Shown piece by piece: positions 1,185 to 19,791 of a stretch of 42,322 bases of DNA. Where the stretch lies: UHGV virus genome UHGV-0136707. One strand, given 5' to 3'. The notes below the pieces were generated by a model. The model was not told the DNA's origin. It made no database searches and worked only from the letters and a program-made list of their open reading frames with translations. Position numbers and translations under genes: made by a program. Position 1 is the stretch's first letter. Every line of letters begins with the position of its first letter. Origin of the DNA: a virus.

Positions 1185-1291
1185 GGTAGATATTTTGTTT
1201 ATCGCGAATCACATTTTTTCACTTCAGTACCTGTGTGCTATACTCCTTCTTGATTGATTGGATGCGGAATACAAACCCGCTCTTTTGTGCA

Positions 1292-1318
1292 GCCTGGCTC
1301 CTTGCCAGGCTTTTTTTT
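1292..1318 (+). terminator. intrinsic terminator, plus orientation
   Basis: GCCTGGC-TCCTT-GCCAGGC followed by T8. The T-run is only on the plus side. Confidence 0.6.
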
Positions 1319-1628
1319 ATTTCATCATGGAAGCTGTTAATGCTTTGGACCTTGCTGAACTGATTGAGAGGGCTTTGTCAACGTGCCCCAAAAATTCGCC
1401 AAACTCAGACATCACTCTGGCAAAACCGCGCCGTGCTTCTTCCTCGGTGGCATTCATCACGAAATGTTCAGCACTACGCATACTTTTGACAGGGAACGCA
1501 ACGGATATTGAGTCAATATCAGGCATTCTATCGCTCAGCTTTACAGTGACAATGACGGCTGGCGACTGAATATTAGTGCTTACAGACAGCACTACATATT
1601 TTCCGTCGATGTTGAAATCCTTTCTCAT
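1317..1628 (-). CDS. cra: small protein between ref and cre (cra-like)
   Basis: 103-aa ORF in the position of P1 cra. No recognisable domain. An operator-like 17-mer sits just upstream at 1645-1661. Confidence 0.45.
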   Translation of the reverse strand: MRKDFNIDGKYVVLSVSTNIQSPAVIVTVKLSDRMPDIDSISVAFPVKSMRSAEHFVMNATEEEARRGFARVMSEFGEFLGHVDKALSISSARSKALTASMMK

Positions 1629-1644
1629 ATGCCACCATAAATAT

Positions 1645-1661
1645 CAAATAATTAGAGCAAT
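1645..1661 (-). promoter_or_regulatory. C1-operator-like site between cre and cra
   Basis: 14/17 match, reverse orientation. Confidence 0.4.
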
Positions 1662-1678
1662 TTATTGTACATTGACGG

Positions 1679-2710
1679 CTAATCACCATCTTCCAGCAGG
1701 CGCACCATTGCCCCCGTTTCACTATCCAGATTACGGATATAGTTCATGACAATATTTACGTTGGTCCAGCCACCAGCTTGCATGATCTCCGGTATTGAAA
1801 CTCCGGCGCGGGCCATATCTCGCGCGGCTCCGACACGGGCACTGTGTCCAGACCAGGCCAGGTACCTCTGACCAGAGTCATCCTTAGCCCCGTAAATCAA
1901 TCGGTGAGTTGCTTCAAAAATCCCTTCCAGGGCGCGAGTTGATAGCTGGCTGGTGGATGATGGCGAGGCAACACCATTTTTTCTGACCCGGCAAAACAAG
2001 TAGTTATTCGGATCATCAGCCACACCAGAGACAGAAATCCATCGCTCGACCAGTTTAGTTACCCCCAGGCTAAGTGCCTTCTCTACACCTGCGGTGCTAA
2101 CCAGCGTTTTCGTTCTGCCAATATGGATTAACATTCTCCCACCGTCAGTACGTGAGATATCTTTAACCCTGATCCTGGCAATTTCGGCTATACGTAACAG
2201 GGTGTTATAAGCAATCCCCAGAAATGCCAGATTACGTATATCCTGGCAGCGATCGCTATTTTCCATGAGTGAACGAACCTGGTCGAAATCAGTGCGTTCG
2301 AACGCTAGTGCCTGTTTTGCACGTTCACCGGCATCAACGTTTTCTTTTCGGATCCTCCGCATGACCAGTGAAACAGCATTGCTGTCACTTGGTCGTGGCA
2401 GCCCGGACCGACGATGAAGCATGTTTAGCTGGCCCAAATGTTGCTGGATAGTTTTTACTGCCAGACCGCGCGCCTGAAGATATAGAAGATAATCGCGGAC
2501 ATCTTCAGGTTCTGCGGGAAACCATTTCCGGTTATTCAACTTGCACCATGCCGCCCATGACCGACAAACGGACAGAAGCATTTTCCAGGTATGCTCAGAA
2601 AACGCCTGGCGATCCCTGAACATATCCATCAGGTTCTTGCGAACCTCATCACTCGTTGCATCGACCGGCAATGCAGGCAAATTTTGGTGTACGGTCAGTA
2701 AATTGGACAT
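1679..2710 (-). CDS. cre: Cre tyrosine site-specific recombinase
   Basis: 343-aa ORF whose sequence I recognise as Cre (MSNLLTVHQNLPALPVDATSDEVRKNLMDMFRDRQAFSEHTWKMLLSVCRSWAAWCKLNNRKWFPAEPEDVRDYLLYLQARGLAVKTIQQH... and C-terminal catalytic region GHSARVGAARDMARAGVSIPEIMQAGGWTNVNIVMNYIRNLDSE). Canonical loxP lies 419 bp upstream. Confidence 0.98.
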   Translation of the reverse strand: MSNLLTVHQNLPALPVDATSDEVRKNLMDMFRDRQAFSEHTWKMLLSVCRSWAAWCKLNNRKWFPAEPEDVRDYLLYLQARGLAVKTIQQHLGQLNMLHRRSGLPRPSDSNAVSLVMRRIRKENVDAGERAKQALAFERTDFDQVRSLMENSDRCQDIRNLAFLGIAYNTLLRIAEIARIRVKDISRTDGGRMLIHIGRTKTLVSTAGVEKALSLGVTKLVERWISVSGVADDPNNYLFCRVRKNGVASPSSTSQLSTRALEGIFEATHRLIYGAKDDSGQRYLAWSGHSARVGAARDMARAGVSIPEIMQAGGWTNVNIVMNYIRNLDSETGAMVRLLEDGD

Positions 2711-2717
2711 TTAACAC

Positions 2718-2939
2718 TCAGATAATGGTTTTAAGTAAAGTGTACAGGATCGGCTCTGCCTTTACCTGTTTATGGTTCTCGTCATAGAAACGCCAGCGAC
2801 CGCGCGTGCGTTCTATCTTTTCTTCACCGCGCGATAATGACAGTTGGCAACTATCACGGTCAAACCCTTTTGCCCGCCAGTAACCACGATTTTTCTCAAG
2901 CTCAAGATGAGTGGACACTTTAGCAGCTGAATATCCCAT
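2718..2939 (-). CDS. hypothetical small protein in the cre leader
   Basis: 73-aa ORF with a GAGGTG Shine-Dalgarno 4 nt before its ATG (2937-2939). Its stop is 8 nt from the cre start. I do not recall a P1 gene here, so it may be spurious. Confidence 0.3.
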   Translation of the reverse strand: MGYSAAKVSTHLELEKNRGYWRAKGFDRDSCQLSLSRGEEKIERTRGRWRFYDENHKQVKAEPILYTLLKTII

Positions 2940-17754: not shown

Positions 17755-17763
17755 GCATCCCCC

Positions 17764-17850
17764 TTACCCATGTGCGACGATGCCGCCAAAAGTGATAGAG
17801 AACAGCCAGAAATAGATCGCGGCCATAATGATTTTGAATGCCGTGTTCAT
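17764..17850 (-). CDS. 28-aa hydrophobic peptide (possible leader peptide)
   Basis: Hand-found ORF, MNTAFKIIMAAIYFWLFSITFGGIVAHG, with a CAGGAG Shine-Dalgarno. Its stop lies inside the Shine-Dalgarno of the ASCH gene. Confidence 0.3.
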   Translation of the reverse strand: MNTAFKIIMAAIYFWLFSITFGGIVAHG

Positions 17851-17879
17851 ATTTTCAGCTCCTGTGATTGATTGGATAC

Positions 17880-17909
17880 ATGCCGCGCCTTGCGGCATGT
17901 TTTTATTTT
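17880..17909 (+). terminator. intrinsic terminator-like hairpin, plus orientation
   Basis: ATGCCGC-loop-GCGGCAT followed by TTTTTATTTT, 5 bp after a GATTGATTGG motif copy. Confidence 0.5.
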
Positions 17910-17932
17910 CACTTTCTCTGTTTTAAAAATCA

Positions 17933-17949
17933 AGATTTATTAGAGCAAT
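17933..17949 (-). promoter_or_regulatory. C1-operator-like site
   Basis: 16/17 match (AGATTTATTAGAGCAAT reverse) in the gap upstream of the ASCH gene. Confidence 0.6.
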
Positions 17950-18455
17950 TATTGTTGATGAAGAAGCGCGTTTTCATACTCCCTGACCATTAACGTAAGT
18001 ACACCGTGACTTCTGAAAACACGCGCCACTTCAATCTTATCTTCCAGCGCGAACGCGATTTTACTTAGACCAATTTTCTTAAGGAGATCAATCTTTGCTG
18101 GGCCGTCATTTCTGTCATCGGTGGCAGGACGCATAGATAGCAAAGGCTCAGCCCCGTTTGTTACGTACTTCCGCAGCCAGGCTCGTGTTTTATCCCTTGC
18201 GATCTCACAGCGCCCGGTTACAAACCAGACCGTGTAAACGTTAAATAACTGGCGCACCATATCAATAACTGGAGTGATGGGAGTATCGGTGTCACAGGCA
18301 AGGTTAAACTCGTTCCAGTGCTCTGTTAATGCACCTTTGCCAGGTGGTGGAAGCAAATGCAGCCTGTCTTCCGTTGCCTCTGATATCGTCCCATCAATAT
18401 CTACTATGACGATGTACGGACGTTCCTGGTGTGCGTGTTTATTGAAAATACTCAA
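17949..18455 (-). CDS. HAD-superfamily phosphatase (PNK 3'-phosphatase-like)
   Basis: 168-aa ORF with the HAD motif I (IVIVDIDGT). Confidence 0.65.
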   Translation of the reverse strand: MSIFNKHAHQERPYIVIVDIDGTISEATEDRLHLLPPPGKGALTEHWNEFNLACDTDTPITPVIDMVRQLFNVYTVWFVTGRCEIARDKTRAWLRKYVTNGAEPLLSMRPATDDRNDGPAKIDLLKKIGLSKIAFALEDKIEVARVFRSHGVLTLMVREYENALLHQQ

Positions 18456-18528
18456 ATGCCCTCCTCATTGGACGAAAAAAATGCTGGTGGGACGCACTCC
18501 ACCAGCATTAAAAGTGACACTGTAACTA

Positions 18529-19791
18529 TCAGCGAACGTAAATAGTGCCGCCGTTCTCTTTTTCCCATGCATCGCTACGTGCATAGCAAACATCGAGAAG
18601 TCTTCTTGCCGCTGTTTCCTCTAAACCCAATTCGACAACCAACTGCTCATGACGGCGGGTAACCACATCAAACAGGGTATGCAACCCTTTAGTTGCCAGA
18701 TCATCAATGAATTCCGGTTCGAACGGCAGCTCTGCATCTGCCAACATAACCTCTTGCGCCCACTCAACTCGACGGACCAATTCCGGGCGGCGGCTTTCCA
18801 TTTCTTTACAGATCAATTCATGGAAGAACTCTACCCAACCTTCCGGCTGGAACTCGCGGAAAATTGCCAACGGCTGGAAGTTTGGCATCAACCATTCGTT
18901 GATTCGGATATCAATGGCATAGCCCATGTCGCAGCAGAACTGATAAGCAAAGTCCAGCTTAGAAACGATATAAGGACGCTCGTTATTGAACTCTTTAGGC
19001 GATGAGATCCCATAAGCCAGGAGGCGCGGGAAGAAGGAGATTTGCCCTAACGTCGGATGAAGTTTGCTTGCAGGGAAACGGCGCTCAGTAATGCCATACA
19101 TTTCCTTCTTGAGCGTCGCAAATTTGGCATTCTCATTAACCAGCGCGGTAACCTCTGCTTTTTTATTAGCAAATGCCACGCGCGCCTCGCTTGCATCTTT
19201 AATAGTTTTTTTGAGCTGTTGGTTAAGGTCGGCGACCTGCTTACGCAGTTCCTGTCGCTCGCTTTTAGCTTTGTTATAGCGTTTCTCAAGGTTAAAAGGA
19301 TCAAGTTTCATGATCTCTTTATATTGAGATTTTAGCGTTGAAATCTGTGAGTTCCGCAGTTCAACCATCGCGGTCATTTCATTGAGTTTTGTTTCCAGCT
19401 CAATGCTTATACGTTCGGCATTATCAGCACGCTGGTTGGCGTCATGCGTCGCATCGTCGATCGCGTCCTGTTGCTGGCGTTTCAAATGTTCAATTTGCAG
19501 CTGAAGCTCTTCAATTTCTTTACCCTTCAGACCGAGATCCAACTGCATATTTTCAGCTGCATCTACCAGGGAGTTATGGCTATCAGCTTCTGCGTTATAA
19601 ACATCAATAAGCTGTGCGTGAAGCATCTCCGCTGACTGAACCGCATTATCAAAAAAACGTGCTGTGAGGTCATCACAACTAACGCGGCGTTGCGCGGCCC
19701 GGATGTTCTGGATAATGGCCGGGATACCGGCATTCAGGACATCAGGGATAGATACATTTTCGATTGATTGGTTTTGTGCTGAAGTGCTCAT
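18529..19791 (-). CDS. coiled-coil protein with C-terminal globular domain
   Basis: 420-aa ORF. N-terminal ~230 aa is heptad-rich; C-terminal half has no domain I recognise. Confidence 0.65.
   Translation of the reverse strand: MSTSAQNQSIENVSIPDVLNAGIPAIIQNIRAAQRRVSCDDLTARFFDNAVQSAEMLHAQLIDVYNAEADSHNSLVDAAENMQLDLGLKGKEIEELQLQIEHLKRQQQDAIDDATHDANQRADNAERISIELETKLNEMTAMVELRNSQISTLKSQYKEIMKLDPFNLEKRYNKAKSERQELRKQVADLNQQLKKTIKDASEARVAFANKKAEVTALVNENAKFATLKKEMYGITERRFPASKLHPTLGQISFFPRLLAYGISSPKEFNNERPYIVSKLDFAYQFCCDMGYAIDIRINEWLMPNFQPLAIFREFQPEGWVEFFHELICKEMESRRPELVRRVEWAQEVMLADAELPFEPEFIDDLATKGLHTLFDVVTRRHEQLVVELGLEETAARRLLDVCYARSDAWEKENGGTIYVR

Follow-up and report, generated by a model that had tools for sequence, protein, structure and literature searches.

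A recurrent 10-nt word of phage-plasmid P1 and its relatives as the probable seed and pairing sites of a candidate small RNA

The window analysed in this study is the whole stretch of 42,322 nt from the virus genome UHGV-0136707. Between the c8 and ref genes, on the strand opposite to both, lies a candidate small RNA (sRNA) gene of about 67 nt (1252-1318, plus strand), for which a -10 element, a seed, hairpin 1, a linker, and a terminator were predicted. The promoter scan gave a TG-extended -10 element, TGcTATACT (1236-1244, plus strand; consensus match only), located exactly 7 nt from the G of GATTGATTGG at 1252, and a weak -35-like hexamer, TTTTCA (1216-1221, plus strand), with a 17-nt spacer. 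The putative 5' end of the RNA is a copy of the word GATTGATTGG (seed; 1252-1261, plus strand), with GAUUGAUU single-stranded in the predicted fold; the change of GAUUGAUU to GAAACAUU is an example of an altered seed. The seed is followed on the plus strand by hairpin 1 (1260-1283; core stem, 1264-1267 with 1277-1280), by a U-rich linker (CUCUUUUGUGC) between the two hairpins, and by the intrinsic terminator that the fold indicates (hairpin, 1291-1311; U-run, 1312-1318). The folding energy of the candidate (1252-1318) was -23.2 kcal/mol (z = -3.2). No Rfam family matched the locus, and no description of the candidate or of the word was found in Rfam, the P1 RefSeq annotation, or the searchable literature, in line with an earlier note on this DNA, in which the word was not recognised as a described P1 signal.

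An exact word count over both strands of the window gave five copies of GATTGATTGG. Four of them, already listed in the earlier note, are on the plus strand (1252-1261, 2951-2960, 17866-17875, and 19762-19771), and the first three extend to TGATTGATTGG, as had been stated, the extension being absent from the copy at 19762. The fifth copy, which had been missed, is on the minus strand (28715-28724; the plus strand reads CCAATCAATC), antisense inside dbn. P1 has the same five copies and none besides. The copy inside dbn has no counterpart in the P1-like elements JK004 and CP053320, of which all the copies are on the gene-sense strand, and it is probably due to chance. When the window was shuffled with preservation of dinucleotides, the mean was 0.13 copies and none of the 100 shuffles reached five; among the repeated 10-mers of the window, GATTGATTGG ranked right behind the C1 operators, the RepA iterons, and the Chi-containing words. 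One-mismatch versions were not enriched in the window (8 observed, 4.5 expected). Of 200 third-order Markov simulations of the window, 41 contained some 10-mer with at least five copies, and the count in this single window was not significant after correction for all words. Since the count alone is not decisive, weight was placed on the position and strand of the copies and on their replication in other genomes.

At the three plus-strand copies other than that at 1252, the minus-strand mRNAs contain the exact complement of the seed, CCAAUCAAUC(A). The cra site (CCAAUCAAUCA; 2950-2960, minus strand) is in the leader of the cra-cre operon, downstream of a long hairpin and directly 5' of the Shine-Dalgarno sequence (SD) GAGGUG and the cra AUG (2937-2939; ORF, 2718-2939). 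This site was invariant in 80 loci, and the cre-operon leaders of JK004 and CP053320 hold a homologous site despite a different first gene in the operon. The second site (CCAAUCAAUCA; 17865-17875, minus strand) is located downstream of a C1-operator promoter (P1 OpmgT/Op88), between a 5' hairpin (17878-17900) and the SD AGGAG with the AUG (17848-17850) of a hydrophobic peptide of 28 codons; its pairing with the sRNA extends to 14 bp in the window, and homologues are present in JK004 (64807), in L108, and, as UCAAUCAAUCA (G·U wobble), in CP053320. The position of these two sites directly 5' of an SD and a start codon had been noticed before and is correct. The third site (CCAAUCAAUC; 19762-19771, minus strand) covers codons 7-10 (N-Q-S-I) of pmgS. 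Its nucleotides CAA TCA ATC are identical in four lineages (window, JK004, CP053320, and L108) with divergent flanking codons and N-termini; however, the site spans +21 to +30, beyond the classical five-codon window, which counts against the sRNA reading. Two plus-strand copies do precede a hairpin with a T-run (1291-1311 and 17878-17900), as had been reported, and the suggestion of small plus-strand transcripts fits the copy at 1252, with its predicted -10 element and terminator, but not the others. As for 17878-17900, its antisense T-run was not conserved in JK004, and the hairpin is better read as the 5' hairpin of the target mRNA.

A second class of sites corresponds to C(C/U)AAUCAGU, the G·U-wobble version of the seed complement. 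In all of P1, C[CT]AATCAGT occurs exactly three times, and each occurrence immediately precedes the SD of pdcB, lpa, or lxr, so that the looser versions pointed out in the earlier note are real and specific. The pdcB-like site (CCAAUCAGU; 9103-9111, minus strand) precedes the SD AGGUG and a GUG start (ORF, 8044-9087) and was invariant in 78 of 78 IMG/VR loci. The site of lpa, which encodes the late-promoter activator (CUAAUCAGU; 7966-7974, minus strand), precedes the SD AGGUG and the AUG (7953-7955) and was invariant in 80 of 80 loci; it has the weakest predicted duplex (-8.1 kcal/mol) owing to two G·U pairs. The lxr-like site (CCAAUCAGU; 10807-10815, plus strand) precedes the SD AAGGA and the AUG (10832) of a plus-strand gene, and its variant in 4 loci, CUAAUCAAU, retains the pairing. 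The copy of CAATCAATCA noted at 7497-7506 is present but is oriented the other way and overlaps with the stop codon of lpa, and it probably belongs to a different kind of site.

The sRNA module was found also in P1 and in two distant P1-like elements, Cronobacter phage JK004 and Salmonella plasmid CP053320, of which the neighbouring C8 protein is only 46-48% identical. Both have the layout of the window (TGnTATACT, 7 nt, GATTGATTGG, hairpin 1, and terminator); their hairpin 1 is unrelated in sequence to that of the window and retains the folding, and their terminator contains one compensatory pair (U-A to C-G), the terminator being 100% paired throughout. TGnTATACT and its 7-nt distance to the seed are retained in JK004, CP053320, L092, and L097. 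A covariance model of the candidate gave exactly one strong match per genome (90.8, 68.3, and 63.2 bits). Among 79 P1-type loci, the seed had a nucleotide diversity of 0.010 and the sRNA body one of 0.023, compared with 0.10 for the intergenic DNA on the flanks and 0.14 for the third codon positions of c8. TATACT was invariant (n = 53 unique P1-type variants), as were the first nine seed bases of the P1-type loci, in which the spacer that separates the -10 element from the seed was variable. The DNA upstream of about 1236 is replaced by unrelated sequence in L074 and L041, yet the -10 element through the terminator is retained; TTTTCA is not conserved in these two, and JK004 and CP053320 have no equivalent of it. 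On this comparison the sRNA locus is judged to be under purifying selection across the 79 P1-type loci. Some P1-type variants combine a G10-to-A or G10-to-T change of the seed with loss of the TG, which counts against the sRNA reading.

Conservation of the copies in related phage-plasmids, proposed earlier as a check, was found for JK004 (6 copies) and CP053320 (4 copies), mostly at gene 5' ends behind C1-operator promoters. Sites followed by an SD, a start codon, and an ORF numbered 5 in P1 (0.25 in shuffles), 3 in JK004 (0.30), and 2 in CP053320 (0.45), and the counts of complementary words along the sRNA had their maximum at the seed in all three. JK004 has sites absent from the P1 set at analogous positions, namely, at ref and at a small membrane protein. 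The base 5' of the target co-varied with base 11 of the sRNA: base 11 is C in JK004 with G at 5 of 5 targets, U in CP053320 with A at 4 of 4 targets (the fourth being the wobble site of the peptide leader), and U in L097/L108 with A at both targets seen. Against this, base 11 of the P1 type pairs at only one of the three exact sites. Changes within the target sites were mostly C-to-U or A-to-G and thus retained the pairing. Phage D6 (91 kb), which is without c8 and without the sRNA gene, has 0 copies of the word and 0 sites adjacent to a ribosome-binding site. The seed-target pairing is short (9-14 nt), and a plain duplex-energy scan did not clearly rank the target sites over the background.

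We consider it likely that one copy of the word is the seed of an unannotated sRNA gene of P1 and that the other copies are pairing sites on P1's own mRNAs. The architecture and conservation of the gene, the complementarity of seed and targets, and the co-variation come from the sequence and its comparison among genomes; we infer further that an RNA of about 67 nt is produced, being transcribed from the TG-extended -10 promoter between c8 and ref and ending at the intrinsic terminator. Its 5' seed (1252-1261) would be single-stranded and free to pair in vivo with 9-14 nt that directly precede the SD of cra, the 28-codon membrane peptide, pdcB, lpa, and lxr, and also with pmgS codons 7-10. The pairing, presumably dependent on Hfq, would act as repression, most likely by blocking 30S binding and/or triggering mRNA decay, and functions that are mostly C1-repressed and early would be held down until transcription outruns the sRNA. 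If so, P1 would have an RNA layer of control that reaches the Cre operon, Lpa as the activator of late genes, and further early genes.

Pairing in trans is supported by the co-variation at base 11, by the lack of both gene and word in D6, and by published RNA-seq data, in which annotated predicted targets are raised early in infection of a Δhfq strain. With P1vir at 10 min, the log2 change of Δhfq against wild type was +1.28 for pmgS, +0.68 for lpa, +0.47 for pdcB, +1.0 (not significant) for lxr, and +0.26 for cra, and -1.04 for pmgR, directly upstream of pmgS in one operon (bioRxiv 10.64898/2025.12.28.696737, Table S1), phage read counts being low and the loss of Hfq pleiotropic. Counting against the reading, pmgT, just behind the peptide leader, goes down, not up (-1.75), and cra falls at 20 min in Δhfq (bioRxiv 10.64898/2025.12.28.696737).

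The word could instead be an autonomous cis-acting element of the mRNA (translational enhancer, ribosome standby site, or 16S rRNA pairing), for which no phage RNA is needed. Most copies are indeed on the mRNA strand, 1-8 nt 5' of an SD, and the sites are CA-rich and mostly unpaired (P(unpaired), 0.35-0.86). We nevertheless regard this as unlikely: one copy per genome lacks an ORF behind it, and there the antisense strand shows a conserved TGnTATACT-N7 and a terminator with a T-run; the complementarity to 16S rRNA is only 6-7 contiguous bases; the pmgS site is inside the coding sequence; the phage RNA shows co-variation with the base just 5' of the sites; and D6 retains homologous genes without the word. 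The translational element suggested earlier therefore stands as sites adjacent to ribosome-binding sites on mRNAs, most likely for sRNA pairing and not as enhancers in their own right.

Recognition of the sites by the host sRNA OmrA, the phage transcript being irrelevant or a mere mimic, is quite unlikely, and would be compatible with the phage sRNA rather than exclusive of it. OmrA and OmrB (Rfam RF00079; Hfq-dependent, enterobacterial, about 80-90 nt) have, like the candidate, a 5' targeting region and an intrinsic terminator, and act at ribosome-binding sites and early coding regions, with many targets near SD and start codons or in early coding sequence (fepA, +14 to +22; ompT, +12 to +20) (PMC12692685, PMC2588501). 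In the E. coli K-12 sequence, bases 11-19 of OmrA (AUUGAUUGG) are the complement of CCAAUCAAU; with OmrA U20 paired to an A located 5' of the site, the contiguous pairing amounts to 11 bp in the cra leader and 10 bp in pmgS. However, the invariant last C of the target word, which pairs with G1 of the phage RNA, faces OmrA U10, and the G 5' of all JK004 targets, which pairs with C11 of the phage RNA, makes only a wobble with OmrA U20; validated pairing of OmrA is mainly through bases 1-10, OmrB carries a mismatch (AUUGAUAGG), and D6 also infects E. coli, yet is without the sites. The nine consecutive bases common to OmrA and the seed are not at the 5' end of OmrA, whereas they lie in the 5' seed of the candidate, and nothing is alike outside them; the OmrA/OmrB model of Rfam gave no match at the sRNA locus even at E <= 10. 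Unlike the phage-encoded candidate, OmrA/B are chromosomal and OmpR-controlled, with host targets.

Similarly improbable is a real plus-strand RNA whose function is confined to cis, where it would counter read-through from c8 to ref either as an antisense RNA or by a convergent-transcription block, the other copies being unrelated. The RNA would be fully complementary to any c8 read-through transcript, and read-through is likely, since no sense-strand T-run follows the hairpin downstream of c8; but this reading leaves unexplained the 3-5 further exact complements per genome at gene 5' ends, why complementarity peaks specifically at the seed, why base 11 co-varies with the targets, and why D6 is without the word. 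The protein-binding site that was among the earlier suggestions, taken here as DNA bound by a phage-encoded or host protein at or close to early promoters, found no support and is decidedly improbable: C1-controlled or other promoters do lie 30-90 bp upstream of several copies, but the copies are always oriented with transcription and within transcripts, one copy in a coding sequence is about 240 nt from the nearest promoter, the tolerated variants are exactly those that retain RNA pairing (A/G opposite U, C/U opposite G), and there is no known candidate for the protein. That a low-complexity (CAAT)n-like word recurs by chance and was passed on by descent among closely related genomes is very unlikely and the least probable of these explanations, in spite of the Markov simulations and of the 95-99% identity of most P1-like plasmids, since sites persist at 46-75% protein identity while their flanks diverge, additional sites occur at analogous positions in JK004, the strand and position biases are extreme, and D6 has none.

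The candidate phage sRNA resembles the C4 antisense RNA of P1 (immI; acting on icd-ant; its features are annotated in NC_005856) in being a short RNA of the same phage that acts at phage ribosome-binding sites through complementarity over short stretches (a'/b' with a2/b2, 7-8 nt) and, next to the C1 repressor, provides lysogenic control at a second level. C4 is cut from the transcript that it regulates and has one adjacent target operon, whereas the candidate has its own promoter and terminator, a 5'-terminal seed, and sites in at least six transcription units at distances of up to tens of kb; the two are not similar in sequence or structure. The CI RNA of satellite phage P4 is a small RNA immunity factor of which seqB is complementary to the seqA/seqC repeats in P4's early transcripts, and here, as with the candidate, the genome repeats a short word in the regulator and in its targets. 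It is processed from the leader that it controls and causes premature transcription termination, whereas the location of the candidate's sites at ribosome-binding sites suggests translational control; the two are not homologous. The sRNAs of E. coli prophages (DicF, AgvB/AsxR, SvsR, Pas, and others) are likewise encoded by temperate phages, from genes with a promoter and terminator of their own, and use a short seed on several targets; their targets are mainly host mRNAs or sRNAs, whereas the sites of the candidate are in early, lysogeny-related, and late-activator genes of the phage-plasmid itself.

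The window belongs to a P1-like phage-plasmid with 97% identity to Salmonella phage SJ46 and about 95% to P1. It runs in the reverse orientation to the P1 reference; therefore, its minus strand corresponds to the P1 top strand, where most of the local genes lie. The repeated 10-mer GATTGATTGG (hereafter, the word) was found in exactly five copies. Four are on the plus strand, each in the place reported in an earlier note on this DNA; the set in that note was incomplete and lacked the copy on the minus strand at 28715-28724. The excess over expectation described there held for exact copies (five, versus 0.13 in dinucleotide shuffles of the window) but not for one-mismatch copies, which were not enriched in the window. 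Among the repeated 10-mers of the window, the word ranked just below the C1 operators, the RepA iterons and Chi-containing words, all three known functional repeats. The copy count is not decisive by itself, because some 10-mer reached five copies in 41 of the third-order Markov simulations (n = 200). P1 (94.8 kb) has the same five copies and no further ones: 21 nt before the cra start, between c8 and the ref promoters, in pmgS codons 7-10, 30 nt downstream of the -10 of the C1-controlled promoter P1pmgT, and, on the other strand, within dbn. As a side observation, the 10-mer ranking of the window, with its C1 operators and Chi, is resembled by that of the whole genome of D6 (MF356679), where the commonest repeated 10-mers are TGTTAGAAAA-type words (10 copies; presumably operators of D6's own repressor), followed by Chi-containing words.

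The copy at 1252-1261 (+), referred to as the seed, forms the 5' end of a candidate small RNA (1252-1318, +) located between c8 and ref on the strand opposite to both. Exactly 7 nt separate the G of this copy from the end of an upstream TG-extended -10 element, TGcTATACT (1236-1244, +), and the element and its fixed spacing to the seed are kept across four lineages; on these grounds of consensus and conservation, it is a predicted promoter element that would give the RNA its own 5' end. The RNA predicted from G1252 (about 67 nt; fold of -23.2 kcal/mol, z = -3.2) has a single-stranded GAUUGAUU at the 5' end, then a hairpin that is closed by the final two G of the word, a linker rich in U, and a terminator hairpin (1291-1311, +) with an 8-bp G+C-rich stem and a run of U (7 T in the DNA). 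This predicted arrangement is the one that is standard for enterobacterial small RNAs that base-pair through a 5' seed. The probability of being unpaired for seed bases 1-8 was mostly about 0.6-0.99, and was lower in a few variants (for example, locus L073). The strand opposite to this copy has an SD-like AAGGAG with no ORF behind it. No Rfam family matched the locus at gathering scores or at E <= 10, and the search of the window at gathering and permissive thresholds gave only tRNAs and sub-threshold terminator-shaped matches. The richly annotated RefSeq record of P1 has no feature at the locus, and our literature search, which did not cover the P1 genome paper (PMC523184), gave nothing relevant on the word, as DNA or RNA, or on sRNAs of P1 or phage-plasmids. 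A second plus-strand sRNA considered at 17866-17906 was rejected (covariance model score of only 16.9 bits, no plausible -10, and an antisense T-run not conserved in Cronobacter phage JK004); this feature is better taken as an mRNA 5' hairpin. The P1-type linker GCUCUUUUGU was also rejected as a second seed: its five exact complements ACAAAAGAGC in P1 (NC_005856; 33824(+), 34826(-), 67834(+), 71756(+) and 93647(-)) all lie within coding sequences (in two cases those of the paralogues U and U'), other lineages had none, and the complementarity is probably due to chance.

The P1-type conservation set consisted of 80 IMG/VR loci (53 distinct sequences). TATACT and GATTGATTG were unchanged in all 53, GATTGATTG being invariant also in four distant lineages, and the 7-nt spacer between TATACT and the seed varied among P1-type loci. 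Changes in hairpin 1 were confined to the loop or yielded G·U pairs; in the terminator, the stem was constant and the loop and U-run were variable. Two loci have unrelated DNA 5' of the -10 region and yet retain everything from the -10 to the terminator, a pattern that marks a module boundary. Nucleotide diversity was 0.010 in the seed and 0.023 in the RNA body, compared with 0.10 in the adjoining intergenic DNA and 0.14 for c8 third codon positions. About 700 PLSDB plasmids carry the locus. JK004 and the Salmonella arizonae plasmid CP053320, whose C8 proteins have 48% and 46% identity, respectively, to that of the window, have at the same place TGaTATACT, a 7-nt spacer of different sequence, GATTGATTGG, hairpin 1 and the terminator. 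Their hairpin 1 is unrelated in sequence to the P1 type and still folds, and their terminator shows a U-A to C-G compensatory pair. The conservation among P1-like genomes on which the earlier reading depended was borne out, with the seed copy and target copies of GATTGATTGG kept in P1, JK004 and CP053320. Two further variants of the gene (L092 and L097) were recovered by a pattern scan. Covariation was formally counted for the terminator only, where an alignment of 13 variants had every cell paired and one compensatory pair; MAFFT misregistered hairpin 1 between lineages, so hairpin 1 was judged by separate folds, in which the RNA folds alike in all lineages. T/C-rich tails follow the terminator in all lineages, and the covariance model gave exactly one strong match per genome (90.8, 68.3 and 63.2 bits). 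A promoter-plus-seed scan of species-representative genomes yielded two Escherichia matches and about 10 chance matches in unrelated taxa, with no new lineages.

The other copies of the word read as target sites in mRNAs, with the sequence CCAAUCAAUC(A), the perfect complement of the seed. The predicted targets in the window are the cra leader (in the order word, GAGGUG, AUG), that of a hydrophobic peptide of 28 codons downstream of the Op88 operator (hairpin at the 5' end, word, AGGAG, AUG), and pmgS codons 7-10. All six copies in JK004 are on the gene-sense strand. One is the seed copy; the others are in the leaders of the cre operon (the first gene of which differs), of the homologous peptide and of a small membrane protein downstream of another C1 operator, in pmgS codons 7-10, and at the beginning of ref. 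In CP053320, four copies are exact, and the peptide leader has UCAAUCAAUCA, which gives a G·U pair with G10. Counts of complementary words along the RNA had their sole peak at the seed in all three genomes, and the sites are mostly unpaired in the folded leaders. The looser copies listed in the earlier note proved to be of the form C[CT]AATCAGT, which occurs three times in P1, each time immediately before the SD of pdcB, lpa or lxr; their A-to-G and C-to-U differences from the main word leave the pairing with U3 and G9 of the RNA in place. These wobble-class sites were invariant in about 80 further loci, apart from a single variant at lxr (CUAAUCAAU) in which pairing is retained. Sites with at most two wobbles followed by an SD, a start codon and an ORF numbered 5 in P1, 3 in JK004 and 2 in CP053320 (0.25-0.45 in shuffles); the pmgS site is one more target beyond this SD-adjacent set.

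At base 11, the RNA co-varies in trans with its predicted targets. Base 11 of the RNA is C in JK004, with G as the base 5' of the targets in 5/5; it is U in CP053320, with A in 4/4 (the fourth being the wobble site of the peptide leader); and it is U in the L097 lineage, with A in both targets recovered (L108). Therefore, three homologous targets changed together with the RNA. In the P1 type, the duplex is extended in the peptide leader only (14 bp in the window). D6, which is related to P1 and has neither c8 nor the RNA gene, served as the negative control: its 91 kb contain no copy of GATTGATTGG, none in pmgS or the cre leader, and no RBS-adjacent site, and its best covariance-model match (22.5 bits) was rejected as the orf17 terminator. 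At the pmgS site, the codons CAA-TCA-ATC are identical in four lineages and the surrounding N-terminal codons differ; this synonymous conservation points to selection on the nucleotides. A whole-genome RNAduplex scan with the first 16 nt did not resolve the sites, as G·U-rich duplexes and hairpin-1 bases swamped the ranking.

P1vir transcripts in Δhfq and wild-type hosts were compared in a 2025 preprint, in which C4 is the sole P1 sRNA named (10.64898/2025.12.28.696737). In its Table S1, the log2 changes in Δhfq versus wild type at 10 min are +1.28 for pmgS, +1.92 for pap, +0.68 for lpa, +0.47 for pdcB, +1.0 for lxr (not significant) and +0.26 for cra; thus, 5/5 annotated predicted targets were raised. 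The value for pmgR, immediately upstream of pmgS in the same operon, is -1.04, and the pmgR/pmgS break coincides with the position of the target site. Contrary to the simple picture, pmgT, behind the peptide leader, was down by 1.75, and cra fell at 20 min (10.64898/2025.12.28.696737). Considering that Hfq loss is pleiotropic and that phage read counts were low, these data offer a hint, from independent experiments, in favour of the predicted targets.

That the word is an autonomous enhancer at ribosome-binding sites is quite unlikely: the seed copy has a predicted antisense promoter and terminator, the co-variation of base 11 with the targets would be unexplained, and the D6 pattern does not fit. 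For an enhancer pairing with rRNA (epsilon or downstream-box type), complementarity to the 16S rRNA is poor: the best match in E. coli rrsH, around nt 1014-1028, has no more than 6-7 contiguous pairs (ΔG of -10.1 kcal/mol, with a bulge included). Recognition of the sites by host OmrA was considered because bases 11-19 of E. coli K-12 OmrA (L004:603-690, -) are AUUGAUUGG, equal to 9/10 seed bases, and could pair over 9-11 nt with the same sites (11 nt in the cra leader). The phage RNA nevertheless gives the better fit to the G residues of JK004 and to the last C of the word, which is invariant, and OmrB has a mismatch to the seed (AUUGAUAGG); OmrA as the recognizing RNA is very unlikely, and cross-talk of OmrA at phage sites is possible. 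The OmrA-B family model (RF00079) gave no match in 1100-3200 at E <= 10 or in the whole window at the gathering score, the likeness being a 9-nt identity only. Equally little credence is given to a purely cis-antisense role of the RNA, which leaves most of the pattern unexplained. The same holds for a DNA-binding site, a highly improbable reading (IHF, DnaA, C1 operator and late promoter sites, compared by eye, did not fit the word), and for recurrence of the word by chance, which is scarcely credible.

The candidate RNA has a rho-independent terminator with a U-tail, a conserved single-stranded seed and several unlinked targets that are seed-complementary at translation-initiation regions, as do trans-acting base-pairing sRNAs of the Hfq/ProQ type. 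The P1 C4 RNA and the P4 CI RNA are likewise phage RNAs complementary to repeated short sites in phage transcripts, and OmrA/B likewise have a 5' seed; by sequence or covariance model, the candidate falls outside these families. C4 is released by processing from the immI leader, whereas the candidate lies between c8 and ref, and no sRNA family, that of C4 included, reached the Rfam threshold at 1252-1318. Type I toxin-antitoxin systems combine a small hydrophobic toxin with an RNA antitoxin from the same locus; here, peptide toxicity is putative, the RNA is encoded far from the peptide genes, and most targets are not peptides. We file the candidate as a phage-encoded trans-acting small RNA, new within its class and unusual in that its recognizable regulon comprises the phage-plasmid's own early, recombination and late-activator genes.

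The 5' end of the RNA would pair with 9-14 nt abutting the SD, or at +21 to +30 in pmgS. Since these positions are within or beside the 30S footprint, blocked initiation, possibly followed by decay, would be the most likely outcome. Sites in coding regions have precedents in OmrA/B at fepA (+14 to +22) and ompT (+12 to +20) (PMC12692685, PMC2588501). Because most targets are first genes behind C1-operator promoters, the RNA would act as a post-transcriptional back-up to C1, setting a threshold for early genes and Lpa; we infer the production of the RNA, the sign of regulation and the chaperone. A broader proposal, which we consider doubtful, is that P1 immunity has, in addition to C1 and C4, a third, RNA-based arm formed by this RNA. 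Made in the lysogen, the RNA would curb leaky expression of Lpa, of the cre operon and of the genes that come first in several C1-controlled operons; it would therefore influence how lysogeny is established and how stable it is, and it might be what underlies the position to which c8 was mapped ('establishment of lysogeny'). As part of this tentative proposal, because the seed overlaps the targeting region of OmrA, EnvZ-OmpR envelope-stress signalling could feed into the phage sites, or else host targets of OmrA, for example outer-membrane receptors, could come within reach of the phage RNA. P1, from which Cre-lox comes, is among the most studied phages; phage-plasmids related to it are common in Escherichia, Salmonella and Klebsiella and often carry resistance genes. 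With sites at the ribosome-binding regions of lpa, pmgS, pdcB, lxr, the cre operon and a small membrane peptide, a conserved small RNA would regulate the lysis-lysogeny programme and natural Cre expression in a way that has so far gone unrecognised, and could account for the altered timing of lpa and pmgS expression that has been reported in Δhfq hosts. The prediction (a 67-nt RNA, a 10-nt seed and named sites) is precise enough for a few experiments.

Several minor features of the targets were noted. Small hydrophobic proteins account for two of the targets (the 28-aa MNTAFKIIMAAIYFWLFSITFGGIVAHG and, in JK004 and CP053320, one of 52 aa), and neither Pfam nor PHROG gave a match. The ORF of the former (17764-17850, -) has a good SD, precedes the next gene and is absent from the P1 annotation; the peptide, conserved in JK004 and CP053320, might be a small toxin of the membrane or have a regulatory role as a leader peptide. 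In the leader of the 50-52-aa membrane protein behind a C1 operator (JK004, about 70400-70470, -; CP053320, about 35200-35270, -), a 5' GGUCUGAU can pair with AUCAGACC by the AUG, enclosing the hairpin, the target word and the SD, and this pairing is conserved in both. The 3' end of the lpa mRNA (7470-7510, -) reads AUC-UGA-UUGAUUGC, UU, the hairpin GCCCGUUCCGGGC and CUUUUGA, with a 9/10 seed copy just before the terminator that resembles a 3'-UTR-derived sRNA; CP053320 has CAUUGAUUGG at the lpa stop codon, and nothing similar was found at the lpa end of JK004.

As for the RNA gene itself, a few P1-type variants (loci L030, L036, L040 and L042; window-equivalent positions 1237 and 1261) have G10-to-A in the seed, or G10-to-T in one of them, together with loss of the extended -10 TG, and may be weakened alleles. 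The non-P1 lineages have an inverted repeat around the -10 (L086, about 4040-4066; L097, about 931-957; L092, about 3687-3712) that is absent from the P1 type; it is GCGAATG-N12-CATTCGC in CP053320, its arms co-change in L097 (GCGGATG / CATCCGT) and L092, and it may serve as an operator or form a hairpin on the top strand. A protein with a ProQ/FinO domain (Pfam PF04352, 47 bits), a family of RNA chaperones with no homologue found in P1 or the window, is encoded by distant P1-like elements carrying the RNA gene (NZ_CP009570.2, 72985-73515; JK004 gene_111, MZ188976 81956-82489; CP053320, 46756-47256).
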